Of a stretch of 32,000 nt of DNA, positions 12,161 through 32,000 are shown one piece after another. The stretch is from Nostoc punctiforme PCC 73102. Lineage in GTDB: Bacteria > Cyanobacteriota > Cyanobacteriia > Cyanobacteriales > Nostocaceae. The notes under the pieces were generated by a model. It made no database searches. It saw nothing but the letters and a program-made list of their open reading frames with translations, and was not told the DNA's origin. The first letter of the stretch is position 1. Each line of letters begins with the position of its first letter. Position numbers and translations under genes: made by a program. The stretch is taken from the NCBI RefSeq assembly GCF_000020025.1, contig NC_010628.1, forward strand, positions 2,640,001 through 2,672,000, written 5' to 3'.

Positions 12161-12290
12161 GATAATTCTCCTATTAGTTGAAGGAATTTATTTATGGGGT
12201 GAGGTATTGAATTAACTGTCCAAGTTCCTCATTACTACAGATGCGGCTATATAGATAAAATTCACCGACCTGGGTTAAAAACCCTTAATT

Positions 12291-13193
12291 TTATTTGTGT
12301 AGTAGCGAATTATCTTCGCGTAATACTTTCAAAACATTCTCTAAGTGAGTATTCAATTCAAAAGCCACGATGCTCAAGATAAGATTTGCCATAATGCTAA
12401 ATGCAGCGTAGGGTGCAAATGTAGATTTGGCATAACTAAACTGAAGTTTTAAAATGTGCAATTGAGAATTAAATCCTATCTTTGGCAGATGTTTTGAGAC
12501 AGTAAATAAAGACGTATCAATCTTGATCTCTAAGTTAGCGAAATCGCAAATATTATTTATTGGCGATATACCTGTTTTCAGGTATGACTCTTTGAGCGTC
12601 CATAGAAGTGTATATAGCTGAGAAATGCTTAATTCATCTTTTATTTGCTGCTGCACCCATAATGTTTCCTGTTTCGAGAAATAAGATTCGTAAAAATTTG
12701 GGCAGTGAGAAATAGGCTCCTCCAAATCTAAGCCGACTGGCCCAGAAGAACTCAGACTGGCGATCGCCAAACCGCCAGCATGAGAAATAGAAAGATACAT
12801 TGCCGAAAGAATATTGCCTTGCCAAAATAATTGTGGCGCTCCTTTTAAGCTAGGGTTAGACGGCAATATTTCAATAGAGCGATACACAATTGGCAAAACT
12901 GTAGCAATATCATTGCATCCCAACTTTTGGATGGTTGGCGGCCAAACAGAGTTGGAGTTTGCCAAGTGAGTATTACTCAGATAGCGGCTGAATAATAATT
13001 TGCAGACAAGTCTGGCTGTAAACCACTCATAACGCCGCCTGGGATGCTTAAATTGATGAAAATAAGCCAGTTCTTTTGCAGATAAATAGTCTTTAGCATG
13101 GACAGCCAGCTCGCCACCGATATCAATGTGCATGGCAGCAATTGTAGGAAGGCATTGAGCGAATTCAGGTAAGTGAGTGGTTGATGGTGGCAT
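12291..13193 (-). CDS. Sfp/HetI-type 4'-phosphopantetheinyl transferase
   Basis: 300 aa. PPTase motifs ISHAGGLAIASLSSSGPVGLDLEE and WTLKESYLKTGI (W.xKE..xK) are present. The gene sits between the megasynthase and the ACP-ACP gene. Confidence 0.75.
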   Translation of the reverse strand: MPPSTTHLPEFAQCLPTIAAMHIDIGGELAVHAKDYLSAKELAYFHQFKHPRRRYEWFTARLVCKLLFSRYLSNTHLANSNSVWPPTIQKLGCNDIATVLPIVYRSIEILPSNPSLKGAPQLFWQGNILSAMYLSISHAGGLAIASLSSSGPVGLDLEEPISHCPNFYESYFSKQETLWVQQQIKDELSISQLYTLLWTLKESYLKTGISPINNICDFANLEIKIDTSLFTVSKHLPKIGFNSQLHILKLQFSYAKSTFAPYAAFSIMANLILSIVAFELNTHLENVLKVLREDNSLLHK

Positions 13194-13240
13194 GAGTGAG
13201 GTTTTTTACACAGGCATTATTTTGATTCCAGGTTTGATTT

Positions 13241-16200: not shown

Positions 16201-19200
16201 CGCAGTCGTGACTCATCAGCATCAACTCTGCGATACGTAAGGTTTCTAGTAAGGAATCAATACCTGCATCGATGACTATGTTAGGCCCGTTGAAATTAAA
16301 CAGGTTGCACACTTGACCAGCAGTAATATTAGGCATTGAACCAATCAAGGTATATGGAGACGAGGGAGAATTAGCTTGCTGGATGGCAGTAAATAGCTTT
16401 TGGCAAAGACGCTCAAAATCAATATCTGATTGTGAGAAATGTCCAGGTTTGGACTGTAAAAGCCTCCGCAGCCGGTCTAGAAACAGACGCTCGTTGACGG
16501 TAATGCCTCGCCCAGTTTTTCCAGGCATCCCAATTACAACTCCAGTTCTACTTTGGAGAGCTAATGCTTTTTCTCCCAGACCTCGGAGTGCTTTTTCAGT
16601 TGCCATTACACTGAGGTACTGACTGGCATCCATACGATCTGTGACATCAGGTAATAGCCGTCGCTTGACTGGCAATTGCAGTGTCTCTCGGGCAAACTGC
16701 TTGACTTGAATATCTGGAACTGAATTTTCTTGCAGTCCGTTTAAGGATGGAAATAAAGTACCAATTCCTACTAACGCTAGCGGTCTACGTAGAGAATGAG
16801 TATTCGGTCTTTGAGAAAACTGCCGATGGTAACTAGGATCGTAAGCTTCAATAATTAAGTTGGCGTTAGTACCTCCAAAACCAAAGCCATTTACTGCTGC
16901 ACGGCGGGGTTGTCCGGCTATGTTATTCGGCCAAGGCAATGGTGTTGTCGGAATGGATAAACAAGAACCTTGAAGTTCAATATCTTTATTGGGTGATTTG
17001 TAGTTATACTGACGTGGAATAGTTTGGGCTTTTAAAGCTTGGCAAACTTTAATAATAGAAGCTGTTCCGGCTACCCAGCCAGTATGACCAATCAAAGCTT
17101 TGACACTACCCAAATAAATTGGCGGTAAATTTGCTTCTCGTTTGTCGAACACTTCAGACAGCGACTTAAACTCTGTACCATCGCCAACTGGTGTAGCGGT
17201 TGCATGGGCTTCAATGTACTGAATCGTATTCGGATTTATCTGGGCGTTCTCACAAGCTCGCTGACATGCTAATACTTGACCAACTTTAGTAGGTACATTC
17301 ACAGCAGCACTCTTACCATCACTTGATGTCCCAACACCCCGGATGATGCCGTGGATGCGATCTCCAGCAGCGATCGCATCAGGTAAGCGTTTGAGTGCTA
17401 GAATAGCTGCTCCTTCGCTGAAAACTACTCCATCTGCGGTAGCATCGAAGGGGCGGCTACCTGTGGCAGAAAGACCTTTGAACTGAGCAAATAGACAGTT
17501 CATCGCTACTCCCGGTGCGAATACACCCCCCGAAAGTACTAGGTCGCTTTCATGGTTTTGTAGTAGTTTGATGCCGATGTCAACGGTGTAAAGGGAAGAA
17601 GCACAGGCAGCATCTAAGAGTAAGGTTTTTACACCATCGCCTAAGAATTTCTGGACTACGCGCTTGTAACATAGGTCAGGTGCGAGAAATTCGTGTTCTC
17701 CACTTTTTCGTCCTAGCAAGGTTTGTAGGGAATTGCTAAAAGTGGTACGCAACTGCTCTGGTTCGTCTAGTTTCTCAACGAAATACTTTAAGCTTTCAGC
17801 AAACAGAGCTTCATCGTACTCTTTGATGCCGTCAGCTGTGGAGCCAAGGAGACAATGCACTTTTTTGGTAGCAGATACTTGCTGATGAATGGGATTGAGA
17901 CACTGAGCTAATGCTTTAGCAAGTAGTTGCTGACCTCTTGTTAAGTTGTTGAATTCTTCGAGACTGTACGGTATACCTTTTTCATATTCCACCTGATTGA
18001 TTCTGCCACTGAGTAAAGTGTAGGTTTTCTCAGGAATTACAGATCCATCAGACATAAAATCTGGTACTAAGGAAGGATCGATGAGGCCTAAATCAACAAT
18101 GCCGGTGACTCCATCTTGAATATTTCGCCAGTATGCTTGTGGACTATCAGCTCCAGGTAGCAAGCAACCCATAGAAACAATAGCAATGGGAACGTTAGTG
18201 CCATTCGTGTCTGAGTCAGATGATAATGCTGCCGAGCTAAAAGCCGTTACTTCTTCAGGCTCGATTTCCCATTTCCCATACTCAAAAGCTTCATCCACAA
18301 CGGGATGGAGTTTTTCATTATTTTCTGGTGTAGGCTGCGGATGAGATAGCTGCCCAGAATATGTCTGTACAATGTGTTGCAGTCCTTCAATTATATTGCG
18401 ATCGTCAGACATCACAGACTGGGCGATCGCTTCTGGTTCAGATGGCAAGTTCTTTTGCACTAACTTTGTCAAGACTCTGCTTGCACCGCACTCGATAAAC
18501 GAATGGACGCCTTGTTGCTGGAGTATTTTTACAGCTTGAGAGAAGTTAACAACTTGGATGAAATGTGCAGCTAGAGTTTGAGGAAAATCAGTATTTGCAG
18601 TGTAAAAAGCTTTATTTATTGGTGAATATACTGGGATTTTTGGCGCTTGGAACGAGAACTGCTGTAAACTTGAGCAAAAAGATGCAACAGCTGGAGCTAA
18701 CAAAGCTGAGTGGAAAGGATATCGGCTTTTGAGAAAAGTGCAAGAAATGCCCAGGGGAACTAGCTCAGATTCAACCTGCTGGAGTTCTGTATAAAGTCCA
18801 GACAAAACAATTTGCTGTGGATGGTTGATAACCGCTACTGTTAAAGCAGTTTTTTTGATGGCGCTAAAAAGTTCCGTCAACCGTTGGGCACCGCAGGCGA
18901 TCGCCATCATACCACCAATATTGCTGGCAAAATTACGTAAAACTTGTATCCGTTGGCATACAATTTCGACGCTTGTCTCAAAGTCAAAAACACCGCCAAT
19001 GGTCAAGGCGGTTAATTCTCCAAAGCTATGGCCGACCAAAATATCTGGGTGCAGTCCTTGCTCAATCAAAAGTTCGGCAATGATGATATTTGTCAATAAA
19101 ATGCCTATTTGATCGAGGTCTGGACATTGTTGCAGCAAAAACTGATGTTCGTCATTGGACTGAGCTTGGATCAATGTTAAAAAGGAATAACCCAAATAAC

Positions 19201-19933
19201 GTTGAGTTAATTCATCAGCCTTAGTAAAGAGTGACTTTTTAGCAGGATAGTTCTGATAGAGAGTTTGTAAAGTCTGGTAATCATAAGCTCCCTGACCGGG
19301 GAATGTGAAGACTATTTTATTTTGAGCTAAAGGATTTACTTTTGTAATATTGACTTTATCTAATGTTAAAAAATAAGTATCTACAATCTGCACTCCCGAA
19401 GGATCGTTAGCTAGATTTCGACTGGTTATGAGTTTACCTAATTCACAAACTTCTGGTGTGAAAATCTTCTTAATTTCCTTTCCACCTGCTACTACTTTTT
19501 CTGCAAACGGCGGATCTAACAACCGCTCAATTAGACCGAAGTTTTGCAACACATAATCAACTAGTACAGGCGGAATAGGAATCAGTTCACCTGTGATTCT
19601 GGAAGTGAATACAAGCACCTGATATCCACAACAAACAGGTGTTCCGTCTTCACGAATTACCCGAAAACACAATCGAGTAGTAGACCTTGTTGGCTCATCA
19701 AAAGTTAGAAGAATAACTACACGCTCACCCAGTCCTACAGGTGCCATATTCCGGCTATATCCTTGCTGGGTTAGAATGACAACATCTTGAAAAGTTTCTT
19801 TATTAAACAGTCCGCCGAAAAAGAAGTGCTCCCGTGCGATACACTGAAATCGGAAGTTAGTCAGATAATGATGGGAACCATAGGCCATTGTGTCTTCAAA
19901 ATGAATCTGATACGGAACAGCTATGTAGCTCAT
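13241..19933 (-). CDS. Type I PKS / PUFA-synthase-like megasynthase: hotdog-AT-KS-CLF-KR-DH, no ACP in cis
   Basis: 2230-aa uninterrupted ORF. The ATG at 19933 is preceded by AAGGAG (complement of 19940-19945). Domain motifs are listed in the six sub-features that follow. Confidence 0.9.
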   Translation of the reverse strand: MSYIAVPYQIHFEDTMAYGSHHYLTNFRFQCIAREHFFFGGLFNKETFQDVVILTQQGYSRNMAPVGLGERVVILLTFDEPTRSTTRLCFRVIREDGTPVCCGYQVLVFTSRITGELIPIPPVLVDYVLQNFGLIERLLDPPFAEKVVAGGKEIKKIFTPEVCELGKLITSRNLANDPSGVQIVDTYFLTLDKVNITKVNPLAQNKIVFTFPGQGAYDYQTLQTLYQNYPAKKSLFTKADELTQRYLGYSFLTLIQAQSNDEHQFLLQQCPDLDQIGILLTNIIIAELLIEQGLHPDILVGHSFGELTALTIGGVFDFETSVEIVCQRIQVLRNFASNIGGMMAIACGAQRLTELFSAIKKTALTVAVINHPQQIVLSGLYTELQQVESELVPLGISCTFLKSRYPFHSALLAPAVASFCSSLQQFSFQAPKIPVYSPINKAFYTANTDFPQTLAAHFIQVVNFSQAVKILQQQGVHSFIECGASRVLTKLVQKNLPSEPEAIAQSVMSDDRNIIEGLQHIVQTYSGQLSHPQPTPENNEKLHPVVDEAFEYGKWEIEPEEVTAFSSAALSSDSDTNGTNVPIAIVSMGCLLPGADSPQAYWRNIQDGVTGIVDLGLIDPSLVPDFMSDGSVIPEKTYTLLSGRINQVEYEKGIPYSLEEFNNLTRGQQLLAKALAQCLNPIHQQVSATKKVHCLLGSTADGIKEYDEALFAESLKYFVEKLDEPEQLRTTFSNSLQTLLGRKSGEHEFLAPDLCYKRVVQKFLGDGVKTLLLDAACASSLYTVDIGIKLLQNHESDLVLSGGVFAPGVAMNCLFAQFKGLSATGSRPFDATADGVVFSEGAAILALKRLPDAIAAGDRIHGIIRGVGTSSDGKSAAVNVPTKVGQVLACQRACENAQINPNTIQYIEAHATATPVGDGTEFKSLSEVFDKREANLPPIYLGSVKALIGHTGWVAGTASIIKVCQALKAQTIPRQYNYKSPNKDIELQGSCLSIPTTPLPWPNNIAGQPRRAAVNGFGFGGTNANLIIEAYDPSYHRQFSQRPNTHSLRRPLALVGIGTLFPSLNGLQENSVPDIQVKQFARETLQLPVKRRLLPDVTDRMDASQYLSVMATEKALRGLGEKALALQSRTGVVIGMPGKTGRGITVNERLFLDRLRRLLQSKPGHFSQSDIDFERLCQKLFTAIQQANSPSSPYTLIGSMPNITAGQVCNLFNFNGPNIVIDAGIDSLLETLRIAELMLMSHDCDLILAGSINGYVGHGAHTSGKDMPTGEAACILALTTIEIAQSHGFPILSTLDVNTSGIQESIVEVAGSNIPIDFYGATGVVEIARAVERVSQSREVVAVEWKSASQGQITFSPFPAPQETANEKYIGTQDINSQSLHQTPTHFYTPSLFPATVEKIAVPRPLEKRQILFLTDQPELWTALAQTQMLKDLNYIVACPANKAIADAIQIDLTSEDAIKATVQKLDFSRYDTIVAIKNLNAISDEQLISIDDSDSLLNLLFAVVRHSYPQLQTGDSALATLCLNAWKTGQLSPYTGLLAGFIKSVARELPKCICKSINTGAASIKDAWQQLDTELNSQPGKPVEVSYMNGDRQIFQLVSLAEVTKDHTPVLNQNSVVITTGGGRGVTAVLMEEVLQRFGCTVVLLGRTDLKSVPAEVLELDEADFAQYESRFYQEQLHRERSQKMPALKAQIEYYQAARELHHTLKHLSALPGRFEYVNVNITDVEAVNQVVAKVVKTYGRIDLVVHGAGIQTSKLLPKRTFTEFQRIIATKLSGLKNLYNACHQYAPNNKVHFHLLTSAFSYIGNDGQPDYGAANEFMNRFAAYMDSSLLTGSWSTIAWLGWAGIGMTRGSEYAVLSQERGLHAIQAEEGQQLFSLLLNGQATAPINVLLTEGEKNYYQIDVVTAQNNLSPGLAKLENKLANKTEENILITPREHIANTKKFSDERQWYVSIKTAPYLLDHLVNDVPTMPATFEQELAAQAAQALRPNLQLIAIENSKFSRFIKFFNEQEILLKTQATIVTEKNHETVIHVKLLSDFIHKNGTLLQKDCVHCEMDIRLAANTQAIVGRYETWNGFEGETIQEPYMNPNSPVRLKGMFDCINNIVIGSNRRRAKFRLKNTTQLRLTSDFCTPAILIDAMLRVATSSGDSNDPRAVFVPQGWKKITLTPDLNDWKLNQLHQELFLVGSNSQKTGDTLYCDWLQVMDANDRVLVLMEEAIGLQKSTQLARL
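13259..14101 (-). other. PKS-type dehydratase (DH) domain
   Basis: aa ~1945-2225. The motif LLDHLVNDVPTMPATF follows HxxxGxxxxP with Asp at the Gly position. The distal motif is PAILIDAMLRV. Confidence 0.65.
14264..15091 (-). other. Ketoreductase (KR) catalytic subdomain
   Basis: aa ~1615-1890. Motifs are VVITTGGGRGVTAVL (NADPH site), GRIDLVVHGAGI and SAFSYIGNDGQPDYGAANEFMN (Ser...Tyr-x3-Asn). A probable structural KR subdomain precedes it at aa ~1410-1600. Confidence 0.8.
15899..16786 (-). other. KS-like chain-length-factor (CLF) type domain lacking the active-site Cys
   Basis: aa ~1050-1345. It has a KS-like fold start LALVGIGTLFP. The position aligned with DAACASS reads IDAGIDSLL, with Ile in place of Cys. 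Confidence 0.7.
16844..18190 (-). other. Ketosynthase (KS) domain with an intact Cys-His-His triad
   Basis: aa ~582-1030. Motifs are IAIVSMGCLLPGA, DAACASSLY (Cys777 = complement of ACA at 17603-17605), EAHATATPVGD, GHTGWVAGTAS and NGFGFGGTNANLIIE. Confidence 0.9.
18434..19321 (-). other. Acyltransferase (AT) domain
   Basis: aa ~205-500. Motifs are FTFPGQGAY, the active-site GHSFGE (Ser302, nt 19028-19030) and YPFHSALL. Confidence 0.85.
19529..19933 (-). other. N-terminal 4HBT/YbgC-like hotdog-fold domain of the megasynthase
   Basis: aa 1-135. IHFEDTMAYGSHHYLTNFRFQCIAREHFF resembles the YbgC/4HBT lead motif (V.YEDTD..G.V.H..Y). The second Asp of EDTD is Met here. Confidence 0.6.
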
Positions 19934-20258
19934 GCCTAACTCCTTTTAAAGCTTTACCGATCAAAGATATAAACAAGTATTTGAGAACTAGCAGTTTTGT
20001 TCAACATCATCATTAGTCAAAAGAAGGGTTACTATACCCATCTTGATTTCTAAATTCACTTTGGCTAAACAATATCATCATTTTCCAAAGAAATAGATGA
20101 GGCAATGTCTATGACAAAATACCTGGCATAGCACTAAGAAAAACTTGCACGGCAGAAATTGAAATTATAGTAAACTTGGATATATTAATAGCTTTATTGC
20201 TTAGCTAATCACATCAGGGATTATATGGAACTTATGAATATTTGAATTTTAGCCTAAG

Positions 20259-20302
20259 TATGTAAATATTTATTGATATAATCCTTAATAAATATTTACA
20301 TA
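20259..20302. repeat. Perfect 16-bp inverted repeat with a 12-nt spacer
   Basis: TATGTAAATATTTATT (20259-20274), spacer GATATAATCCTT, then AATAAATATTTACATA (20287-20302). It lies about 330 nt upstream of the megasynthase start. Confidence 0.9.
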
Positions 20303-20693
20303 TTTTACAGAATAATTATTTTCTGCATCCAAATAAGGGACTTCTAAAGAATAATTTATCCAATAAGTAGGGGCACGGTACCGATCAAATGTCTGTTTCA
20401 CCAAAAATCTGCTGTTGAGAAAAGTTAATCTCTGCAGTGATTTGGTCAAATAATTCTTCTGGTGATACAATACCTCTGCCAAATTACGAGGATCCAACGC
20501 CCGTAGAAATGGGATGAATACGACCTAAAGCAGTAAGCTTGGCAAAAATCTGGGTTAATAAAATAGGCTCAGGCATTTCAGGAAGCATTTTTAAAATTTC
20601 ATGGACATATCGAAGAATTAAAAGAGAGGATTAGAAAAATTTTTAACAAGCGCTTTTTCCGAGTTTGTGAGAAATCCGGGCTCCTGACTTTTC

Positions 20694-21056
20694 ATGGCAT
20701 GTGGAAAAGGTTATTTTGATGGTTTCCCAAGCCCTTTATCTTAACCTCTCACCGATGCAACTGTTGTCATGGATAATTTCAGTTCTCACAAAGTCACAGG
20801 TATAAAGGAAGCCATTGAAGCCGTTGGGATAAGACTGGTGTACTTATCTCCTTATTCTCCTGATTTTTCACCGATTGAAAACTGTTGGTCAAAGGTGAAA
20901 GAGTTTTTGCGTAGGCGTAACCCGCCGCAGGCATCGCTTGCTGCTAGAACATATCTTGAGTTAGACGAGGCCATTACAAATGCTCTGAATGCAGTAACTA
21001 AAAAAGACATTATTGGATGGTTTACCCACTGCTGTTACTGTATTGCACCCAACTGA
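20694..21056 (+). pseudogene. IS630-family transposase C-terminal fragment
   Basis: Frame 3 reads MACGKGYFDGFPSPLS-stop-PLTDATVVMDNFSSHKVTGIKEAIEAVGIRLVYLSPYSPDFSPIENCWSKVKEFLR...ARTYLELDEAITNALNAVTKKDIIGWFTHCCY. This is the VVMDN..HK ... YL(P/S)PYSPD..PIE..WSK.K DDE tail typical of IS630. The N-terminal two-thirds are missing, there is an in-frame TAA at 20742, and frames break further upstream. Confidence 0.7.
20909..20941. repeat. GC-rich short dispersed repeat, copy A (inside the IS630 remnant)
   Basis: TGCGTAGGCGTAACCCGCCGCAGGCATCGCTTG. It translates in frame as the extra peptide RRNPPQASLAA, between FLR and RTYLELD. Confidence 0.75.
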
Positions 21057-21278
21057 GAACCGCCATAATTGCTGATGTACTGCTATTGGTATCTAAGCAT
21101 TTAGATATTCTCAGCATCAAAGCGAAAATGCAAAGAAAGTTAAGGTAGTTAAGAAAGTTAGCAAAAAATTATTTTAAACTGAAAATAGATTATAGCTAAA
21201 TACTTGATATCAAATAGCTATTAACTGCTCTTTTTGAAAACGCGGAACTAAAATTTTCTCGAATTTGATCCTGTACTA

Positions 21279-21311
21279 CTGCGATGCCTATGGCGGGCTG
21301 CGCCTACGCAG
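21279..21311. repeat. GC-rich short dispersed repeat, copy B (opposite orientation)
   Basis: CTGCGATGCCTATGGCGGGCTGCGCCTACGCAG. Its reverse complement matches copy A at about 28 of 33 positions. It is flanked by the 7-bp stem TACTGCG/CGCAGTA and lies 37 nt beyond the stop of the 21348-22763 gene. Confidence 0.75.
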
Positions 21312-21347
21312 TACTTGATATTGAGTGAGTGCCTTACTATTGCTCTA

Positions 21348-22763
21348 TCAAGCAATTGTCGATAGCTGTTTTGCAAAATAGGCCTGGTAGAGTCCGTAGC
21401 GGGGTAAGATGCGATCGCCCTCAAAGCGAATTAATCCCAAACCTTCAAGCTTATAAGTGTCAATAGGATTAAGAGAAATACTTTGCGTTGCTGCCAGAAT
21501 TTCAGCATAAGCCTTTGCCAATCTAGGATTTTCTTGCAGTTTGATCAACTGTCGCCATAAATGATCGCGGTAGATGCCACCATTGGCGATCGCATCCTCT
21601 ACTATTTCTTGCAGGGTCATTTCGTGAGACCTAAGATAGTACAAACTAATCTGAATTAGTGCTGGATGTCCTCCTACTAGTGACATTAGTTGGGCAAAAT
21701 CTTTAGCTTTAAACGAGTCTAAACTATACCGCCTAGCTAAATCTTCTACTTGTGGTTGAGTAAAATCGTTCAGACGAATAGGTAGACCAATATTAAAAGG
21801 AGAGAGGTTAATATCCATAGAGATATAGTCTTCGGTTGAGTAAACCATTACTAACCTCAGCTTTTGCCAGTTGGGATTGTGTCGTGCTTCCTCACACCAT
21901 GACCTCAACAAAGCAAAAAACTCTTGACAAATGTGAGGATATTCAAAAAAACGGTCAATTTCATTCAACACTAAAACCACTGGGCTTTGACATTGCTCGA
22001 GCAAATAGTTTTCTAAATAGAAGCCGCTACTCAAGTTGTAGCCAATTTCTTCATTCCACTTTTCCTTGAGGTTGGGGTCAATACCTAATTGAGTTGCAAT
22101 TTTCCAGCAAAGACGACGCAACAGTTTATTTAAATCAGTTAGACACTCACTATCGAATTGGTAGCAATTCAGATTCACAGTCTGATATCCAAGTTTCTGT
22201 GCAAAGGCACAAAGCCGCAACACAAGAGAACTTTTACCCATCTGTTTGGGGGATTTAATCCGAATCACGCAGCCACTAGTAGTTACTTCTCGATAAACCT
22301 TTCTCTCTAGTGGAGGACGTTCAATATAAAAGTGAGAATCTAAAGGTACGGGGCCATCCGGGTATGACCAAAGATTTTCTATCTGTTCAGTTTGTGTATG
22401 ATGTTCTTCGACAAATGAGGTTAATTCGGAACGTTGAGATAAATCTTCTTCTATATTTGTAATAGACAATAACTCAGATGTTTCAGTCTCATTTGCTTTG
22501 TTGACTATGGTGTAGTCTTGGCTATGTAATTCTATATTAAAAGCGCTAAAGCAGAGTTTTATAGTTTTTTGATCTACACTTTCACTTAAAGACCATAATT
22601 TACTCAAAGTTCTAGTAGAAACATTAACGCGCGAACTTATTTCTTCTAAACTCAAGTGTTCGCCTTTATTTTCTACTATCTCCACAGAAAGAATTGCTGA
22701 TTGTAACCGTTTAATTCCTGTAGAAGTTAGTACAACTCCACGTTTGCGTTTAGTTTTATACAT
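21348..22763 (-). CDS. HTH domain plus AAA-like ATPase domain protein (AAA_35/PF14516-type, uncharacterised family)
   Basis: 471 aa. The N-terminal ~75 aa look HTH-like (KRKRGVVLTSTGIKRLQSA...LSLEEISSRVNVSTRTLSKLW). An acidic/Ser-Thr linker follows. The ATPase part reads YIERPPLERKVY, P-loop SPKQMGKSSLVLRL, Walker-B-like VVLVLNEIDRFF, SPFNIGLPIRL and LVGGHPALIQ. Confidence 0.75.
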   Translation of the reverse strand: MYKTKRKRGVVLTSTGIKRLQSAILSVEIVENKGEHLSLEEISSRVNVSTRTLSKLWSLSESVDQKTIKLCFSAFNIELHSQDYTIVNKANETETSELLSITNIEEDLSQRSELTSFVEEHHTQTEQIENLWSYPDGPVPLDSHFYIERPPLERKVYREVTTSGCVIRIKSPKQMGKSSLVLRLCAFAQKLGYQTVNLNCYQFDSECLTDLNKLLRRLCWKIATQLGIDPNLKEKWNEEIGYNLSSGFYLENYLLEQCQSPVVLVLNEIDRFFEYPHICQEFFALLRSWCEEARHNPNWQKLRLVMVYSTEDYISMDINLSPFNIGLPIRLNDFTQPQVEDLARRYSLDSFKAKDFAQLMSLVGGHPALIQISLYYLRSHEMTLQEIVEDAIANGGIYRDHLWRQLIKLQENPRLAKAYAEILAATQSISLNPIDTYKLEGLGLIRFEGDRILPRYGLYQAYFAKQLSTIA

Positions 22764-22960
22764 TGCTGTTCCAGGTATTTATTATCAATGAGTGTCACAA
22801 GAAATAATTTTTTCTATTTCATACTGAAACTGGAATTTAACGTAGCAATTTTTGATACACTCTCATTTTATTTTTTCTTAAAATCCATAGGAACTCTAAT
22901 GAACTAAGTTACATTATATTAGCTTGATAGTAAACACTGACATCAATTATGTATTTCTCC

Positions 22961-22987
22961 TACTTTTCCCACTTTTCCTACTTTTTC
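22961..22987. repeat. Three tandem 9-nt units (T/C)ACTTTT(C/T)C
   Basis: TACTTTTCC, CACTTTTCC, TACTTTTTC. They lie 198-224 nt upstream of the ATG at 22763, on the opposite strand to the gene. Confidence 0.8.
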
Positions 22988-23342
22988 ACTCGGTGTTTTG
23001 ATGGTAGTCTTGCAAAAACTCTTTGAAGAAATGAAGTCCTAGTATTTACCTGAATTTGTACAAATATGATTAAATAATGTAATATTTTTAGCTTGTATAA
23101 TTTATGACTTTTTGTTGGGTGTAGCAAAAATATTATCGCTTTAGTAGAACTCTAAATACTAAGTATTGATAGTTGTGGAACTACTTGTAATCAAGACTTG
23201 GTTGAAAAATTGGCAGAAATTATGCACCAGCAAAGTCCAAAGATATACGACTAAATAGTGTATAATTTAGTACTATTTGATAATTTTTTATTAGACAAGC
23301 AATGCAGAACTTGCCTAACAGATGTATTCTGATTACTAGCTT

Positions 23343-24503
23343 CTACCAAGAAAAGGGAAGATTTTCTAACTGTCTTGATACCCATTGAGGAGTGAAAACA
23401 CTCCGGTAAATCGGATTTTTAACTCTCAGATAGCCGTTATAATTTCCTACTAAACCAGATAGAAACAGTTGCGTTTGTTCTTCACTATTATCGGCTGGTA
23501 TCAAGTTCTCTATCGGGTTCCTATTCCTTAGTTCCTCTACTTGTAACACCCGTTGATAAATGTTTAATAACTTTCCTGCTTTGTGTTCGTCAAAAAGTAA
23601 GCGATCTCTTATGGTACGGAGATGTTCAGGTTCATCTTGGAATTCCCAATGTTGAATAATGCGCGATCGCACCAATTGTTCTACCCAATATCCTTCAGTA
23701 CCCTTCGGTATGGTAATCGTTCCTTTATAACTTTCTAAGGCAACTTGCACAACTAACTGACAAAGCTTTTGCGTGAGAAACGGCTGTCCTCTTGTCCAAT
23801 GAATAATATACGCCAATATTGCCTGTGGCTGGCTGACTACTTTTTCTAAACCTTCAACTAAGGTCATAACTTCATGTAATTGAAAGTCACATAATTTAAT
23901 TGCTTGACCAATGTTAAAGGGAGTTCGATGTCGACCAACAATTAGGTTAGATGGACTGGCTACACCAAACAAAGCAAAACCCAAGCGTTGAAAACTTGGT
24001 TTATATGCTTGCTGCTCATAACAGTAACTAATCCAGATCAAAAAATCGTTGGCCGGAAAATTCAAACTTAGCAAGCTATTAATATTATCGATAAAGATGA
24101 AAATGCGATTATTTTGAACTTCTCTCAGCAACACCTGTTCAACAAATTGATATAGTCGTTGTACAGGATCAAGCTCTGATTGTTGCTCCCACCAACTTTT
24201 AAAGTTGACCTGTTTTGTCAGATTTAACTTGTGAAACAGGCTGAAAATAATGCCTTTATACCATTGTATAGGTGTAATTTGATTAGTACCTAATAGAGCT
24301 AAATTCAGATAAACACATATATAATTTTCTTTTTCTAAGAGATGAATAGTCCGGTGTAGTAGAGATGATTTACCTGTTTGGTGGCAGTTGAAGACATAAC
24401 AAAAATCTCCTGTTTTTAATCCAGTATAAAGTTGTTCGTCTGCTTGACGGACAATATATGTAGAGTCATCATATTTAAGGCTACCACCGACTTGATATCT
24501 CAT
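23343..24503 (-). CDS. AAA-like ATPase domain protein (AAA_35/PF14516-type, uncharacterised family)
   Basis: The track ORF extends to 24569. I prefer the internal ATG at 24503 because MRYQVGGSLKYDDSTYIVRQADEQLY matches the usual N-terminus of this family as I recall it. Other motifs are P-loop NCHQTGKSSLLHRT, Walker-B-like IFIFIDNINSLLSL, RTPFNIGQAIKL, WTRGQPFLTQKLCQLV, and the C-terminal LSGLVGNYNGYLRVKNPIYRSVF. Confidence 0.75.
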   Translation of the reverse strand: MRYQVGGSLKYDDSTYIVRQADEQLYTGLKTGDFCYVFNCHQTGKSSLLHRTIHLLEKENYICVYLNLALLGTNQITPIQWYKGIIFSLFHKLNLTKQVNFKSWWEQQSELDPVQRLYQFVEQVLLREVQNNRIFIFIDNINSLLSLNFPANDFLIWISYCYEQQAYKPSFQRLGFALFGVASPSNLIVGRHRTPFNIGQAIKLCDFQLHEVMTLVEGLEKVVSQPQAILAYIIHWTRGQPFLTQKLCQLVVQVALESYKGTITIPKGTEGYWVEQLVRSRIIQHWEFQDEPEHLRTIRDRLLFDEHKAGKLLNIYQRVLQVEELRNRNPIENLIPADNSEEQTQLFLSGLVGNYNGYLRVKNPIYRSVFTPQWVSRQLENLPFSW

Positions 24504-25680
24504 AGTCAAGTCAATTCCCATAAATAGGGATACTTGTACTTTTATAACCAATACTATATTTAAACACAAAAATATTCTGATATAATTTCACTATTATACT
24601 CATTATTTTTACTGCAAGTTAAGTTTGAATTGTCTCGTCTTTACTTGAATTCTCTCATGGCGATCGCCCTGTTTCACCACTCTCAGGGAATAGTTTGTTT
24701 CTAACTCTTATGCTATCTGCCGAGCTTTCTATTTATTCCACTTACTTCTTTTTCATTGGGCTGTTGAATTGAAATTTGATAAATCTAGGTTGAGATTTTT
24801 AGCGATGGCGTAACCGCCCAGCATAGCTGCTCGCAACATATAATTCCTCACTCAACTTGTCTTGGTTAGTAAATAACCTGAGTTCGGGATAAATAGATGG
24901 ACATAAATAAAGTGAAGACAGGGCAGGTGAGATACCTATGCCACAAGAGGCTAATTGTTTTATGTAAGATGGGCATTATACCTGCCATAGCCAGTAAAAG
25001 GGTATTTTATATTTAATTAAGTCCATCTACTTATTGGCAATGCAAACAAGACTGCAAGTCAACATAGTTCATAATTTTTCACAGCAGACGTGTAGTAGAA
25101 AATAACAGCTAAATTATTCTATAAAAAAAGCAAATTTTTTGAGAAAAATTATATATTTTTAGATAACTAAAAAGCAATCACTCAAGAGATAGTGCCAAAC
25201 TTAATCACTATATTATTTACAGACTTATCTTCTCTTAGCTAAAAATAAAAATCAAGGAAAGTTAAGACATTTAAGTAAATTATTGAAATAGTTAAGACAG
25301 GAATACTGATCGGTTAAGGGAAAAAGTAGGCTCAAACCCTTGATATATCCTTGTCTATAATTCCCAAAGAGCTTAAACGAGCAGTATTAATTAAGCCAGT
25401 TAATAAAAAAATAAGTAAGTTGCGTTTTGAACTAAAAAATTATTAAAGTAATGACGCAACCATTATAAATCAAGAAAACGCGATTATTACGTAGTAATAA
25501 AAAGCCTGAATTTACTCAAATTTATAACTGGTCTTAAAATTTCCTTTTTGACATTTTGCTTTAGTAACTATTACACTTTTTAATCCATGAAGTGTTTTTA
25601 AAATTGAATCTATCGACCACAGGCTCATCGCTATCACCAGACAAACTAAGCACACCAAAGCTTGAGGTCTCCCAATAAAT

Positions 25681-26201: not shown

Positions 26202-26279
26202 TTCTTAACTTTCTTAACTTTCCTAAATTTCTTAAATTTCTTAACTGTTCTCTTAAATATCTTCTTAAATGTCTTAACT
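26202..26279. repeat. Tandem array of about 8 units with core TCTTAA(A/C)T (mostly 9-nt period)
   Basis: Units: TTCTTAACT (26202), TTCTTAACT (26211), TTCCTAAAT (26220), TTCTTAAAT (26229), TTCTTAACT (26238), GTTCTCTTAAAT (26247), ATCTTCTTAAAT (26259), GTCTTAACT (26271). The array begins 33 nt after the IS982-like remnant. Confidence 0.9.
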
Positions 26280-26565
26280 GGTCTTGCATCTTATTTAAAA
26301 AACTGGGATTATCTATTTGAATATATCTACTGAATGATTAAAAATAAATTATGATGTTGTTTACAAATTAATAATTTTAATTAATAGTAGGATTGTAGTT
26401 TTAGCATACAACGATGTGCCTGACTGCGGTGTAGGTCAAACAACACCCCTGCGACATCAAAGGTAAGATAACACTTGAAATAGAACAATATGAAAAATAG
26501 CTTGTCTTCTACCTCGCCTTTCTGCCTCCTCCCAGGGAACGTTTCCGTAGCTTTTTTCTAGATGA

Positions 26566-27204: not shown

Positions 27205-28560
27205 ATGGATAGAATTATAAAAACAAGTTTCCCACTCTCTTCTGGACAAGAAGCAATGTGGTTTATCTACCAAATTGCTCCAGAGAGCGTTGCTTATAAT
27301 ATATTTACTACTGTAAAAATCAATTCTTATTTAAATATTGTTGCTGTCAATCGTGTATGGGAGAAAATTATTGAACGCCATCCTATTCTCAGAACCACAT
27401 ATACCAATTTTGAAGGCAAACCCGTTCAGCAAGTTAATCAACAATATAAATGTAATGTTGAGGTAATAAATGCCAGCAATTGGAGTGAAGATTACTTAAA
27501 AGAGAAAATATTTGCTATAACTGACAGCCCTTTTGAGTTAGAAAAAGATGCTGTTTTGAGAATTAATTTATTTACTCGCTCAACAAAAGAACACATTCTC
27601 TTGCTAACAATGCACCACATTGCAGGTGATATGTGGTCTTTTGATTTACTGTTGAGTGAATTTCAAACTTTGTATGCCAAGGAAGTTGAGCAAGTTAGTC
27701 AAGAGCAGATCCAAACCGCTCCAGATTCTTTCACTGAAAATAAATCTTATCTAGATTTTGTTCGCTGGCAGTCAGAAATGCTATCTGGTTCTAGAGGAGA
27801 AAAACTGTGGCAATACTGGCAAAAACAATTAGCTGGCGAATTACCAATTTTAAATCTGTTTGCAGACAAACCCCGTCCCCCAGTACAGACTTATCAAGGA
27901 ACAGGATATAGTTTAAAACTAGATGAACAGTTAATTCAAAAACTCAAATGTCTAGCTCTAGCTTCTGGAACAAGCCTTTATCAGGTTTTGCTAGCAGCAT
28001 TTTACGTGCTACTTTATCGCTACACGAATCAAACAGACATCCTCATAGGCAGCCCGATGAGAGGTAGATGGGGTGGAGATTTTAAAGAGATTGTCGGTTA
28101 CTTTGTTAACCTGATGGTTTTACGAACTTCCGTACAGGAAAACGCCACATTTACAGAATTTCTGGCTCACATCAGCAAGACAGTTAAAGAAGCCCAAAAA
28201 CATCAAGATTACCCTTTTTCTCTGTTAGCAGAACAACTCGAACCAGAACGAGATCCCAGTCGTTCTCCTTTATGTCAAGTTAGTTTCACTTGGCAAAGAC
28301 AACGTTGGTGCGAACAAACAGAGAATTCATTGCACAGTGAAGAACAAGTGCTTGAAATGAAGCCATACTTGCTGGGACATCAACGCGGTGCAGACTTTGA
28401 TCTGAATTTAATGGTGATGGAAGCTCAGGGAGTATTGCAACTCTGCTGGCAATATAATACTGACTTGTTTGAGGCTAGTACAATCACGCGTATTGCAGGG
28501 CATTTTGTTACCTTGCTTGAAGGTATTGTAGCTAATCCTCAAAAGCAGATTTGGCAATTA
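27205..28560 (+). other. NRPS condensation domain 1 (at the protein N-terminus)
   Basis: C1-like motif FPLSSGQEAMWFIYQIAPESVAYNI. The His motif is MHHIAGDMWS (HH at 27613-27618, Asp at 27628-27630), with Met after the Asp instead of the usual Gly. Confidence 0.85.
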
Positions 28561-31500
28561 CCTCTGCTGACAGAAATTGAACAACAGCAGTTATTAGTTG
28601 AGTGGAATGATACAGGTGTAGATTATCTCCAAGATAAATGTATCCATCAGTTATTTGAGGAGCAAGTAGAGCGGACCCCCGATGCTATAGCAGTTGTGTT
28701 TGAAAATCAACAATTGACTTACCAGCAGTTGAATTGTCGCGCTAACCAATTAGCCCATTACTTGCAATCTTTGGGCGTGGGTGAAAATGTGCTGGTGGGT
28801 TTGTGTGTAGAACGTTCCTTAGAAATGGTGGTGGGACTATTGGGGATTCTCAAGGCGGGTGGAGCTTATGTACCACTTGACCCTGAGTATCCTGCTGAAC
28901 GCTTAAGCTTCATGCTCAAAGACACTCAAGTAAAAGTGCTGTTGACTCAAGAGAAATTAGTAGAATCTCTTCCTCAACATCAAGCTTGTGTCGTTTGCTT
29001 AGACACAGACTGGCAAAGCATTAGCCAAGTAAATCAAGATAATCTTGATAGCACAGTCAGTGCAGAAAACCTCTCTTATGTGATTTACACCTCCGGTTCT
29101 ACAGGCACACCCAAGGGAGTCGCCGTTACTCATCAGGCCGTCAATCGCCTGATGTTAAACACCAACTATATACAGTTAACAGCTGATGAATGCGTTGCTC
29201 AAGCGGCAAATATTGCTTTTGATGCAGCTACCTTTGAGATTTGGGGAGCATTGCTGCACGGAGCCAAGCTAGTCATTATCACTAAATTCGTATTGCTGAT
29301 CCCAGAAGAATTTGCTGTCAATATCCACGAGCATCAAATCAGTGTCTTATTTTTAACCACAGCTTTATTTAATCAGTTAGCAAGTGTTGTCCCGCAAGCA
29401 TTTAGTTCTCTACGATATCTATTATTTGGTGGTGAAGCGGTTGATCCCAAATGGGTGCTTGAAGTACTAGATAAAGGCGCTCCCCAGCATTTGCTCCATG
29501 TGTATGGGCCAACAGAGAACACCACGTTTTCTTCTTGGTATTTGGTAGAGGATTTAGCAACGACAGCCACAACTATTCCCATTGGTCGGGCGATCGCCAA
29601 TACGCAAATCTACATCCTTGACCAAAACTTACAGCCTGTACCAGTAGGTGTGCCAGGAGAAATATATCTTGGTGGAGCAGGATTAGCACAGGGCTACTTC
29701 AACCGCCCTGAATTGACAAAAGATAAATTCATCCCCAATCCGTTTGATAATTCCAAATTATATAAAACGGGGGATTTGGCACACTATTTAGCAGATGGCA
29801 ACATAGAATACTTAGGACGCATTGACAATCAAGTAAAAATACGTGGTTTCCGCATCGAATTGAGCGAAATCGAAGTAGTCCTAAGCCAACATAGTGATGT
29901 GCAAGTATCTTGTGTCATTGTCCGGGAAGATACCCCTGGTGATACTTGTACTGAGCGACTTGTGCCGAGCGGAGCCGAGGTAAGTCGAAGTAAACGTTTA
30001 GTCGCCTACGTGGTAGCATATCAAGATTGTAAACCCACAATCAGCGAACTGCGGCAATTCCTCACAGCAAAACTCCCAGATTACATGGTGCCAAATGCAA
30101 TAGTTATCTTGGAGTCACTGCCGCTTACTCCCAACGGCAAAGTAGACCGCCGTGCCTTACCCATACCGGATTTACACAGCGAACAACAAGAAAAATTTGT
30201 TGCACCTCGTAATCCAATGGAAGAAATGCTGGCACTCCTTTGGACACAAGTGCTGAAAGTAGAGCTTTTAGGTATTCATGACAACTTCTTTGAACTTGGC
30301 GGACACTCGCTACTAGCAACACAATTAGTTTCACGCATCCGTAACGTTTTTAAACTGGAACTACCATTGCGTGAGTTGTTTGCAAGAGCGACAGTAGCCG
30401 AATTAGCAAAATCAATTAGGCAGTTACAGCAACAGGCACTTCGACTTACCTCGGCTCCGCTCGGCACAAGTCGCTCAGTACAAGACTTAGAACTATCTGA
30501 ACCACCTATTTTACCAAAGATGAGGGATGCAGAATTACCACTGTCTTATGCTCAACAGCGTCTGTGGTTTTTAGATCAGTTCGAGCCGAATAGCGCCTTT
30601 TACAACATTCCTATGGCTTTGCGTCTAGTGGGAAATTTGAATCAACCAGCCCTAGAACAAAGCTTACTAGAGATTATTCATCGCCACGAAGCCTTACGCA
30701 CCAATTTTATTAGAGTTGATGGAAAACCTTCTCAAATTATTCAAACACAAACGAATTGGACAGTTTCAGTTATTGACTTAAAGTATTTATCTACAACCGA
30801 TCAAGAAATTACTAGCCAGGAATTAGCACGACAACAAGCTATTGAGCCTTTTGACCTGGCAAACGGAGCATTAATCAGGACAACATTACTAGTGCTGTCC
30901 CAGACAGAACACATATTGTTAGTTTGTATGCATCATGTTGTCAGTGATGGCTGGTCAATGGGTGTGTTTGTTCAAGAACTAGCAGCGCTGTACGATGCTT
31001 ATGCTCAAGGTCAGCCGTCACCTTTAACACCGCTACCGATTCAGTATGCAGATTTTGCTATCTGGCAAAGAGAGTGGTTACAAGGAAATGTACTGCAAAA
31101 CCAACTAACTTACTGGCAACAACAACTGGCAAACGCACCAGCCTTGTTGTCCCTACCCACAGACCGACCAAGACCTGCTGTGCAGACTTTTGCTGGTGCA
31201 TATCAAAAGTTTGCCCTCTCTGCTGAACTCACTGGTAGGTTGATACAACTGAGTCAGAAACAAGGGGTGACTTTGTTCATGACACTTTTGGCAGCGTTTG
31301 ATACCCTGCTTTACCGCTACACAGGTACAGAAGACATTTTGGTGGGATCTCCCATTGCTAACCGCGATCGCAGTGAGATAGAAGGGTTAATTGGCTTTTT
31401 TGTCAATACTTTAGTCATGCGTACTGACTTAGCAGGCAACCCCAGTTTTAGCGAATTACTGACTCGTGTCCGCGAAATAGCGATGGAGGCATACTCGCAT

Positions 31501-32000
31501 CAGCATTTGCCTTTTGAAATGCTAGTGGAAGCATTGCAGCCAGAACGGGATCTTAGCCATACACCGCTATTCCAGGTGATGTTTACACTTCAGAATGCGC
31601 CCATATCGACCGTGGAGTTAAATCAGTTAAGTGTCAGTTCAACGTTGATAGAAGGTACAACTGCCAAGTTTGATCTTACCTTGTCAATGGAAAATACTGC
31701 TACTGGAGTAGTGGGTGTGTGGGAATATAGCACTGACTTGTTTGATGCCAGCACAATTGAGCGAATGACGGGTCATTTTGTGACATTGCTTGAAAGTATT
31801 ATTGCTAACCCACAACAGTCCATTTCTCAATTGCCCCTGTTGACAGAAATTGAGCAACAACAGTTATTGGTTGAGTGGAACAATACTCAAGCGGATTATC
31901 CCCTTGATAAATGTCTCCATCAGTTGTTTGAGGAGCAAGTAGCGCGTACACCCGATGCTGTAGCGGTGGTGTTTGAAAACCAACAACTGACTTACCAGCA
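27205..32000 (+). CDS. Non-ribosomal peptide synthetase, C-A-T-C-A..., 3' end outside the window
   Basis: It is not in the supplied ORF track because frame 1 has no stop from 27196 to the window end. The ATG at 27205 is preceded by AAGGGG (27194-27199), and an in-frame TAA at 27193-27195 closes the frame upstream. Spot translations at 27205, 27610, 28702, 29161-29640, 29941, 30121, 30298, 30430, 30931 and 31951 are all in frame 1 with NRPS core motifs. Confidence 0.9.
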   Translation, partial: MDRIIKTSFPLSSGQEAMWFIYQIAPESVAYNIFTTVKINSYLNIVAVNRVWEKIIERHPILRTTYTNFEGKPVQQVNQQYKCNVEVINASNWSEDYLKEKIFAITDSPFELEKDAVLRINLFTRSTKEHILLLTMHHIAGDMWSFDLLLSEFQTLYAKEVEQVSQEQIQTAPDSFTENKSYLDFVRWQSEMLSGSRGEKLWQYWQKQLAGELPILNLFADKPRPPVQTYQGTGYSLKLDEQLIQKLKCLALASGTSLYQVLLAAFYVLLYRYTNQTDILIGSPMRGRWGGDFKEIVGYFVNLMVLRTSVQENATFTEFLAHISKTVKEAQKHQDYPFSLLAEQLEPERDPSRSPLCQVSFTWQRQRWCEQTENSLHSEEQVLEMKPYLLGHQRGADFDLNLMVMEAQGVLQLCWQYNTDLFEASTITRIAGHFVTLLEGIVANPQKQIWQLPLLTEIEQQQLLVEWNDTGVDYLQDKCIHQLFEEQVERTPDAIAVVFENQQLTYQQLNCRANQLAHYLQSLGVGENVLVGLCVERSLEMVVGLLGILKAGGAYVPLDPEYPAERLSFMLKDTQVKVLLTQEKLVESLPQHQACVVCLDTDWQSISQVNQDNLDSTVSAENLSYVIYTSGSTGTPKGVAVTHQAVNRLMLNTNYIQLTADECVAQAANIAFDAATFEIWGALLHGAKLVIITKFVLLIPEEFAVNIHEHQISVLFLTTALFNQLASVVPQAFSSLRYLLFGGEAVDPKWVLEVLDKGAPQHLLHVYGPTENTTFSSWYLVEDLATTATTIPIGRAIANTQIYILDQNLQPVPVGVPGEIYLGGAGLAQGYFNRPELTKDKFIPNPFDNSKLYKTGDLAHYLADGNIEYLGRIDNQVKIRGFRIELSEIEVVLSQHSDVQVSCVIVREDTPGDTCTERLVPSGAEVSRSKRLVAYVVAYQDCKPTISELRQFLTAKLPDYMVPNAIVILESLPLTPNGKVDRRALPIPDLHSEQQEKFVAPRNPMEEMLALLWTQVLKVELLGIHDNFFELGGHSLLATQLVSRIRNVFKLELPLRELFARATVAELAKSIRQLQQQALRLTSAPLGTSRSVQDLELSEPPILPKMRDAELPLSYAQQRLWFLDQFEPNSAFYNIPMALRLVGNLNQPALEQSLLEIIHRHEALRTNFIRVDGKPSQIIQTQTNWTVSVIDLKYLSTTDQEITSQELARQQAIEPFDLANGALIRTTLLVLSQTEHILLVCMHHVVSDGWSMGVFVQELAALYDAYAQGQPSPLTPLPIQYADFAIWQREWLQGNVLQNQLTYWQQQLANAPALLSLPTDRPRPAVQTFAGAYQKFALSAELTGRLIQLSQKQGVTLFMTLLAAFDTLLYRYTGTEDILVGSPIANRDRSEIEGLIGFFVNTLVMRTDLAGNPSFSELLTRVREIAMEAYSHQHLPFEMLVEALQPERDLSHTPLFQVMFTLQNAPISTVELNQLSVSSTLIEGTTAKFDLTLSMENTATGVVGVWEYSTDLFDASTIERMTGHFVTLLESIIANPQQSISQLPLLTEIEQQQLLVEWNNTQADYPLDKCLHQLFEEQVARTPDAVAVVFENQQLTYQ
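28645..30160 (+). other. NRPS adenylation domain 1
   Basis: Motifs are LTYQQLNCRANQLAHYL, YVIYTSGSTGTPKGV, FDAATFEIWGALLHGAKLV, NVYGPTEN-type HVYGPTENTTF, GEIYLGGAGLAQGYFNRPELT, YKTGDLA, GRIDNQVKIRGFRIELSEIE, LPDYMVPNAIV and PLTPNGKVDRRAL (Lys at 30139-30141). Confidence 0.9.
29945..29991. repeat. 47-nt small repeat, copy 1 (inside NRPS A domain 1)
   Basis: CTTGTACTGAGCGACTTGTGCCGAGCGGAGCCGAGGTAAGTCGAAGT. It is the exact reverse complement of 30438-30484. Confidence 0.95.
30205..30430 (+). other. NRPS thiolation (PCP) domain 1
   Basis: DNFFELGGHSLLATQLVSRIR, with the phosphopantetheine Ser codon TCG at 30307-30309. Confidence 0.9.
30438..30484. repeat. 47-nt small repeat, copy 2 (inverted, in the NRPS T-C linker)
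   Basis: ACTTCGACTTACCTCGGCTCCGCTCGGCACAAGTCGCTCAGTACAAG. The match to copy 1 is 47/47 and stops at both ends (29944/30485 and 29992/30437 do not pair). Confidence 0.95.
30535..31850 (+). other. NRPS condensation domain 2 (LCL-like)
   Basis: Motifs are LPLSYAQQRLWFLDQFEPNSAFYNIP, MHHVVSDGWSMGVF (HH at 30931-30936, DG at 30946-30951), RPAVQTFAGA and IGFFVNTLVMRTD. Confidence 0.85.
31915..32000 (+). other. Start of NRPS adenylation domain 2
   Basis: LHQLFEEQVARTPDAVAVVFENQQLTYQ. It is roughly 80 percent identical at the DNA level, by eye, to the start of A domain 1 (28640-28740). Confidence 0.8.

Follow-up and report, generated by a model that had tools for sequence, protein, structure and literature searches.

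Nested 24-nt repeat modules, probably of the SDR type, inserted in frame in a non-ribosomal peptide synthetase gene of Nostoc punctiforme

The small dispersed repeats (SDRs) SDR1-8 were reportedly defined in Nostoc punctiforme and its relatives by Elhai, Kato, Cousins, Lindblad and Costa in 2008 (Genome Res 18:1484), and their units are reported to be 21-27 nt long. The SDRs of Elhai et al. are cited in later publications (PMC4390886; PMC5861425; PMC3116915), where they are described as very small mobile repeats that insert precisely and are restricted to the Nostocaceae (PMC4390886; PMC5861425). One of them, SDR5, inserts between nucleotides 3 and 4 of the HIP1 sequence, GCG^ATCGC (PMC4390886). 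Here, two copies of a short repeat were analyzed that lie in opposite orientation within a non-ribosomal peptide synthetase (NRPS) gene of N. punctiforme PCC 73102. The stretch of DNA under study, referred to as the window, comprises 32,000 nt (contig NC_010628.1, positions 2,640,001 to 2,672,000). In all likelihood, the two arms of this inverted repeat are independent in-frame insertions of Nostocaceae-specific, 24-nt mobile modules, which are carried by the gene as SDR-type passengers.

Several other classes of small repeats invite comparison. Rickettsia palindromic elements (Ogata et al., 2000) are palindromic sequences of ~100-150 bp that are inserted in frame (PMC10969869). [quoted passage not shown] N. 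punctiforme itself has a RAYT gene and repetitive extragenic palindromic sequences (REPs; PMC3116915). Finally, the literature on P6b describes heptamer arrays that are interrupted by extra sequence elements, which are polymorphic between Nostoc strains.

Two nested insertions in an NRPS gene

A repeat search of the window identified two 47-nt arms (29945-29991 and 30438-30484), which are reverse complements of each other with 100% identity and are spaced 446 nt apart. No third copy of the arm with up to 3 mismatches was present in the 32-kb window, and no match was obtained in dinucleotide-preserving shuffles (0/100; chance expectation 0). The perfect 47/47 pairing of the two copies, which had been noticed in a sequence-only reading of the window, was thereby confirmed. 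The surrounding frame (frame 0) is open from position 27196 to the end of the window, with an ATG at 27205, and its product matches NRPS structures in the PDB, including LgrA and SrfA-C. Translation also reproduced the 16 extra codons and the peptides quoted for each copy, namely REDTPGD-TCTERLVPSGAEVSRS-KRLVAYVV between cores A8 and A9 (copy 1) and QLQQQ-ALRLTSAPLGTSRSVQ-DLELSEPP at the linker between the carrier (T) and condensation (C) domains (T-C linker; copy 2), in agreement with the 48 extra nucleotides found at each site relative to the orthologues.

In two respects, however, the initial description of the repeat had to be revised. The inserted unit is 48 nt rather than 47 nt long, and copy 1 represents the full family element ACTT...AAGT. 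Furthermore, each copy is not one single small repeat but is composed of two 24-nt modules, one of which is nested in the other: the outer module has the sequence ACTTGTACTGAGCG^AAGTCGAAGT, i.e., ACTTGTACTGAGCGAAGTCGAAGT, and the inner module, ACTTGTGCCGAGCGGAGCCGAGGT, is located at the position marked by the caret, which corresponds to the insertion point GAGCG^AAG. The boundary of copy 2 is ambiguous by 1 nt and can be placed at 30437-30484 or equally at 30436-30483. The antisense open reading frame (ORF) at 30276-30467 described in the sequence-only reading is present as a trivial outcome of the repeat. A scan of the window against Rfam gave no match. The coordinates of all parts of the locus are collected in Table 1.

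The same two positions are found in three different states in closely related genomes. In N. punctiforme UO1, which shows ~97% identity to the window, both site 1 (GGTGAT^AAACGT) and site 2 (CAACAG^GACTTAG) are empty. An 8.33-Mb contig of JGI 3300055348, with ~99% identity to the window, carries the outer 24-mer alone at site 1 and at site 2, and the window carries the outer plus the inner module, 48 nt in total, at both sites. The syntenic loci of UO1 and JGI were found via cluster members of the 75-aa and 60-aa neighbor ORFs. The differences between the strains are indels of 24, 48, or 72 nt within flanks that are 97-99% identical, and the presence or absence of the modules at orthologous sites is precise, as evident from clean 24- or 48-nt gaps in comparison to UO1, JGI, Nostoc sp. 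UHCC 0926 and a metagenomic NRPS (L132). None of the three genomes shows a disrupted NRPS frame: the orthologous genes were called with 4371 aa (JGI, L224) and 4362 aa (UO1, L226), and translation of 2981 codons of the JGI gene revealed zero stops. As more distant homologs are all empty as well, the outer modules were gained after the split from UO1. For the inner modules, the alignments are compatible with either a gain in the lineage of the window or a precise loss in the sister lineage.

Comparisons over larger evolutionary distances give the same picture. In an alignment with 18 protein homologs, both 16-residue segments appear as gaps in all other sequences, and in the solved structure of LgrA, both modules lack 16 residues precisely where insert 1 lies. 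Among the best 80 metagenomic relatives (≤73% identity), ~268 codons cover 300 query residues, and both inserts are consequently missing there. The homolog of Nostoc sp. UHCC 0926, which is encoded on plasmid pn1, exhibits two clean 48-nt gaps at the DNA level, and the ~97% identical UO1 orthologue is devoid of both segments. An early search for protein homologs returned only proteins of ≤700 aa with ≤68% identity and no close orthologue. The alignments with the homologs, LgrA, the metagenomic relatives, UHCC 0926 and UO1 thus answered in the affirmative the question, raised together with the sequence-only reading, of whether both copies are insertions.

The length of one module equals eight codons and each event therefore adds whole codons to the gene. 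In addition, stop codons are absent from four of six frames of the 48-mer and, as read by hand, from five of six frames of the outer module when it stands alone. In an AlphaFold model of a 402-aa fragment, insert 1 (residues 117-132) forms a low-confidence loop between the strands 102-111 and 133-141, which puts it, in the model, in the hairpin loop that separates A8 from A9 in the small adenylation subdomain. Insert 2 (residues 281-296) extends from the end of the last carrier-domain helix into a disordered linker. The model and the LgrA gap at insert 1 agree with the previous assignment of both copies to loop or linker positions. The gene would accordingly have been kept since the length of the modules preserves the frame, most module frames are free of stop codons, and both sites are exposed and flexible. 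Survival of the reading frame is best explained as a filter: insertions last only if they keep the frame, contain no stop codon and lie in permissive loops.

Table 1. Features of the NRPS locus (positions in the window).
Feature	Position	Strand	Remarks
NRPS gene, C-A-T-C-A...	27205..32000	+	ends at window edge; carries both insertions
Copy 1, 48-nt compound ACTTGTACTGAGCG[ACTTGTGCCGAGCGGAGCCGAGGT]AAGTCGAAGT	29944..29991	+	empty site GGTGAT^AAACGT; target duplication absent
Copy 1, left arm of outer module, 14 nt	29944..29957	+	sister JGI genome has exactly ACTTGTACTGAGCG+AAGTCGAAGT
Copy 1, inner module, 24 nt, nested centrally in outer module	29958..29981	+	missing from sister strain
Copy 1, right arm of outer module, 10 nt	29982..29991	+	from comparison with JGI sister genome
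Native NRPS sequence between copies (cores A9-A10, carrier domain)	29992..30436	+	colinear, 97-99% identical in insert-free strains
Copy 2, 48 nt inserted	30437..30484	-	47-nt arm 30438-30484 plus one base; empty site CAACAG^GACTTAG
Copy 2, inner module, 24 nt	30448..30471	-	missing from sister strain

The repeat family and its relation to described elements

The modules belong to a dispersed family, the existence of which had been expected from the sequence alone. The core pattern TTGTGCCGAGCGNNGNCGAGGT was detected in at least 120 contig stretches in a scan of one genome per species. Nearly all of the core matches listed originate from Nostoc, Komarekiella or Cronbergia; Nostoc sp. NMS2 by itself contributes at least 26 stretches. 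The few matches from outside the cyanobacteria agree with the family at the 19 specified core bases and no further. The 24-nt modules can be summarized by the pattern ACTTGTNCNGAGCGNAGNCGANGT, besides which there are sub-families; copy counts as well as orientation tallies were made by eye. When the core matches were lined up, ~45 copies were found to share a 48-nt unit, ACTTGTACTGAGCGACTTGTGCCGAGCGRAGYCGAGGTAAGYCGAAGT, the ends of which are highly conserved. Most copies of the family are embedded in tandem heptamers (ATTGGGC, ATTACGA, ATCCAAA, or ATTGGTC). Solo modules exist as well: the inner 24-mer ACTTGTGCCGAGCGRAGYCGAGGT is also located between ATTACGA heptamers, and the outer 24-mer ACTTGTACTGAGCGAAGYCGAAGT stands alone in seven loci. 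Nesting can proceed beyond two levels, as exemplified by a four-level nest of exactly 96 nt in Nostoc favosum (L010 4078-4175) that is flanked by ATTACGA heptamers. All nested insertion points are situated within the central GAGCGA, usually after position 14, and in single loci after position 10 (L010) or 12 (L224).

The core pattern showed no match in viral contigs. A degenerate 24-mer matched exactly on 12 predicted viral contigs of IMG/VR (L230-L241), some of which (L232, L241) display a GC-rich or otherwise different context; Nostoc prophages, misbinned host DNA or chance may account for these matches. A search of four open-frame peptides against a set of 5.8 billion proteins yielded eight candidates and one match, which is a spurious ORF of 75 aa. 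The family is therefore rarely found inside called genes, and the NRPS of the window is not contained in that index. The spurious ORF (P0121, Nostoc sp. NMS1), which is annotated as a hypothetical protein, runs through three repeat copies in three frames with heptamers between them.

Likened by their described properties rather than by a consensus sequence, the elements of the window are very probably SDRs. Both modules measure exactly 24 nt and lie inside the reported range of 21-27 nt. The family is dispersed, multi-copy and confined to the Nostocaceae, with at least 120 contig stretches identified here, and its members insert precisely, leaving orthologous sites empty, without a transposase or a target duplication. 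In contrast to SDR5, the HIP1 target GCG^ATCGC was not seen for the family of the window in the 211 loci and the viral contigs searched; its nested site is GAGCG^AAG. A literature search with the module strings gave only unrelated primer matches. The three-state strain polymorphism, the NRPS pair and the nests of up to four levels are shown here from newer genomes. The feature is a real, strain-polymorphic instance of an already described element class, which the sequence-only reading had not recognized, just as it had overlooked the nesting of two modules.

With respect to the effect on the protein, Rickettsia palindromic elements are the closest analog, as both are selfish in-frame insertions that encode fold-compatible peptides and leave the genes open. 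The elements of the window differ from them in that they consist of 24-nt modules without a stable palindrome, occur in the Nostocaceae and show no sequence relationship. An identity of the two was therefore rejected, as size and taxon differ and the in-frame behavior alone is common to both. REPs and REPINs are likewise short, abundant and non-autonomous repeats. REPINs, however, are inverted hairpin doublets outside of genes, whereas the modules described here are nested in the same orientation, reside inside genes and form no stable hairpin. Moreover, the RAYT of N. punctiforme is associated with a REP of a different sequence, gttgggttgaggaacgaaacccaac, that bears no relation to the modules. 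This identity was rejected on the basis of folding energies, doublet orientation, intragenic copies and the different RAYT REP sequence, and a REP-like hairpin of the modules was dismissed in view of DNA and RNA folding energies that are no better than those of shuffled sequences. MITEs share with the window elements a non-autonomous and dispersed nature and are sometimes found within genes with in-frame fusions. In contrast to MITEs, the units found here comprise 24 nt, their terminal inversion spans just 4 nt (ACTT/AAGT), and a target duplication is absent. The empty sites GGTGAT^AAACGT, TATCYAC^AACYGA and CAACAG^GACTTAG, none of which shows a duplication, and ends that are inverted over 4 nt only led to the rejection of this identity. 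Finally, most copies of the family resemble P6b-type repeats in being located inside heptamer arrays such as ATTGGGC, ATTACGA, or ATCCAAA, whereas the NRPS copies lack surrounding heptamers.

Origin of the two copies and alternative explanations

In the proposed history of the locus, the outer module ACTTGTACTGAGCGAAGTCGAAGT would have entered two places in NRPS module 1, the hairpin loop between A8 and A9 and the T-C linker. The inner module ACTTGTGCCGAGCGGAGCCGAGGT would then have been inserted at GAGCG^AAG of each outer module, giving rise to identical 48-nt compounds in opposite orientation. The inverted repeat would represent a by-product of these events, and the elements would be neutral or mildly harmful passengers. 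As observed, the insertions are precise, comprise multiples of 24 nt, lack a target duplication and recur in heptamer arrays and in the centers of modules. One might tentatively imagine a trans-acting process that copies a fixed length of 24 nt and has a preference for heptamer arrays and for the “loop” at the center of the modules, thereby generating nests; on slender grounds, this copying could be guided by microhomology. The copies at site 2 and in NRPS module 2 are shifted by one base (23 consensus nucleotides plus a G or A at the other end) and still measure 24 nt. In the orientation of the element, the native target of these copies reads TAAGT^CYTGTTG and mimics an end-to-end junction of the element. 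The two arms of a module show weak complementarity (ACTT..ACT / AGT..AAGT), with a 6-nt “loop” in between that contains all nested insertion points.

Several observations weigh against this history or parts of it. When folded as DNA or RNA, neither the 24-mers nor the 48-mer proved more stable than shuffled sequences, and the argument for hairpin-loop targeting therefore derives solely from the positions of the nested insertions. A 24-mer flanked by GCG...ATCGC, the target of SDR5, was found in none of 211 loci or the viral contigs. As judged from the alignments, site 2 may lack independence, given its shift by one base and the near-identical copy in the corresponding linker of NRPS module 2. 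In addition, the states of both sites match in all three strains (0/0, 24/24, and 48/48), which would not be predicted from independent rare events. The inner module may fill the centers of outer modules very efficiently, or copying may have taken place between the inverted arms, with three genomes only entering this comparison.

These points are taken up by an alternative in which the arms are not independent: site 2 would stem from a very short inter-module gene conversion from the linker of NRPS module 2, and/or the inner module would have been template-switched between the arms (quasi-palindrome correction). Such a scenario would explain the perfect identity of the arms together with the concordant 24/24 and 48/48 states. 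It is also in line with the presence of the same off-by-one 24-mer, in the same orientation, at the homologous position of the T-C linker of NRPS module 2 in UO1 and JGI, with the matched states of sites 1 and 2 in all three strains and with the identity of the two 48-mers at positions that vary across the family. However, the bases flanking the insert at site 2 remain of the module-1 type (CAACAGGC... as opposed to CAACAAGT... in NRPS module 2), so that any conversion tract would equal the insert itself, and the homology arms available for arm-to-arm copying are just 14 and 10 nt long. Site 1 has no counterpart in NRPS module 2, the A8-A9 loop of which is empty in UO1 and JGI; thus, at least the insertion at site 1 is new. 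Furthermore, strong targeting of the module centers predicts that they are filled independently, which is reflected in ~45 nested versus 7 solo copies, albeit in a biased sample. Non-independence of the arms is on balance considered unlikely. Less likely again is a specific coupled process behind the concordant series, i.e., arm-to-arm template switching during replication or a machinery that works simultaneously at the two ends of a short single-stranded stretch. If this were true, the NRPS locus would constitute a natural before/after assay for a length-measuring 24-nt mover that is active on the timescale of strain divergence in N. punctiforme, a model organism.

Independent insertion of mobile modules, the favored reading, also has to be set against explanations that assign a function to the inserts. 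Two of them had been put forward in the sequence-only reading. According to one, the mRNA forms a 47-bp duplex that loops out the A9-A10-carrier region and could be cut by RNase III or obstruct ribosomes, which would tune NRPS expression. In the minimum-energy structure predicted for the region 29900-30530, the full 47-bp duplex is indeed present (-231 versus -164 kcal/mol for shuffles, z = -11), and a perfect duplex of such length is a plausible RNase III substrate. Nevertheless, this folding result is inherent in the repeat itself, and translating ribosomes are expected to unwind an mRNA duplex. Copy pairs of the family that are less than 1 kb apart (~8) are mostly direct (~7, with one inverted), and the sister strain JGI has an inverted repeat of only 23 bp and UO1 has none, with otherwise the same genes, which indicates that there is no conserved requirement for the duplex. 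A regulatory role of the predicted duplex is accordingly judged very unlikely. The other suggestion, a DNA inversion switch in which flipping of the 446-bp segment turns the NRPS off, is even less probable. The perfect inverted geometry of 47 bp was confirmed, and inverted homology of this length can support rare RecA-dependent inversion. However, no recombinase domain was identified among nine tested ORFs at 5584-24569, with AAA_35 genes, a DDE_3 remnant and polyketide synthase (PKS) genes as neighbors of the repeat region. The segment has the same orientation in all three assemblies, and the arrangement appears to have been built stepwise from insertions of a mobile repeat whose close pairs are, as mentioned, mostly direct. 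The inverted-repeat aspect is most likely incidental. The least credible explanation, with a practically negligible chance of being correct, is that the inserts encode ancestral or functional parts of the NRPS (docking or linker extensions, for instance) and are not selfish. It would be compatible with the open frame and the surface-exposed positions, but the peptides are missing from every homolog examined, including the ~97% identical orthologue, the same DNA is a repeat that in Nostoc genomes resides for the most part in heptamer arrays outside of coding sequence, and the two peptides are different reading frames of one DNA sequence. The distribution of the family and the three-strain alignment effectively refute this possibility already.

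Further insertions and other repeats in the window

The two copies are not the only members of the family that reside in coding sequences. In the T-C linker of NRPS module 2, UO1 carries a solo 24-mer (L226 17914-17937), and JGI exhibits a three-level nest of 72 nt (L224 17695-17768), which adds 24 residues, VLRLTSAPVPSSEVEMLGTSRSVQ, and includes a third module type, GTTCCATCGAGCGAAGTCGAGATG. A metagenomic NRPS with 73% identity (L132 2484-2507) contains a clean in-frame outer 24-mer in a C domain, where it is read in another frame as LVLSEVEV. The corresponding site is empty in the window and in UHCC 0926 (TATCYAC^AACYGA), and both inserts of the window are absent from this metagenomic gene. 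The 48-nt compound was also found in frame in an AbiEii toxin gene (275 aa) from Nostoc sp. NMS2 (L042 4794-4841; Pfam E = 1e-16), and 7 flanking bases of this copy (CCGAAGT) are identical to the right end of the element. The idea that tiny mobile repeats can colonize a megasynthase without breaking its ORF is strongly supported by the insertion, family and loop or linker evidence, and the C-domain 24-mer, the module-2 linker 24-mer and the AbiEii 48-mer back it further.

The locus provides a well-resolved case of 24-nt repeats acting as mobile DNA, with empty, single-module and nested states at the same two positions, and the allelic series makes the movement of SDR-type modules experimentally approachable in genetically tractable Nostoc. 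For NRPS engineering, the A8-A9 hairpin loop and the T-C linker stand out as two places where 8 to 24 additional residues leave the reading frame intact. For genome annotation, it accounts for odd low-complexity Nostoc peptides (“AEVSRS,” “LRLTSAPLGTSRSVQ”) and for spurious small ORFs that run through repeat arrays.

Other short repeats were encountered in related NRPS genes. Coding repeats that resemble heptamers (AGCAGGG, AACGCTT) and vary in length occupy the N-terminal part of a C domain (L132 2393-2450; L125 ~4180-4215) and encode peptides such as RERLAGSRERLTLSREQG, where the window has TQTNW alone. One homolog (P0013) carries an unrelated repeat-like peptide, EVENAECRLRIAEGDEGESENPKSKIHDLK, in the same A8-A9 loop, and two others (P0001 and P0003) have unrelated repeat-like peptide inserts in the nearby NPF...LYKTGD loop. 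Insertion of short repeats in these two loops appears to be a general phenomenon. In Logan short-read assemblies, many runs break ~1645 nt or ~2650 nt into the NRPS gene (window ~28850 and ~29855), probably at module-shared sequence just upstream of the first insert.

Elsewhere in the window, a 30-nt inverted pair of 87% identity (20908-20937 and 21281-21310), TGCGTAGGCGTAACCCGCCGCAGGCATCGC, surrounds ~340 nt next to a DDE_3 transposase remnant. As similar strings are found beside SDR-like modules in other Nostoc loci (L003 and L018), it probably belongs to another dispersed repeat family. A tandem 9-nt repeat, TTCTTAACT, is located in the intergenic region upstream of the NRPS gene (26202-26284) and has inverted relatives ~1 and 5 kb away (25243-25280 and 21133-21178). 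Finally, a 262-nt tandem duplication with 95% identity (11562-11823 and 11877-12138) was identified in the carrier/ketoreductase ORF at 10670-12160, where it coincides with two PP-binding stretches from Pfam.

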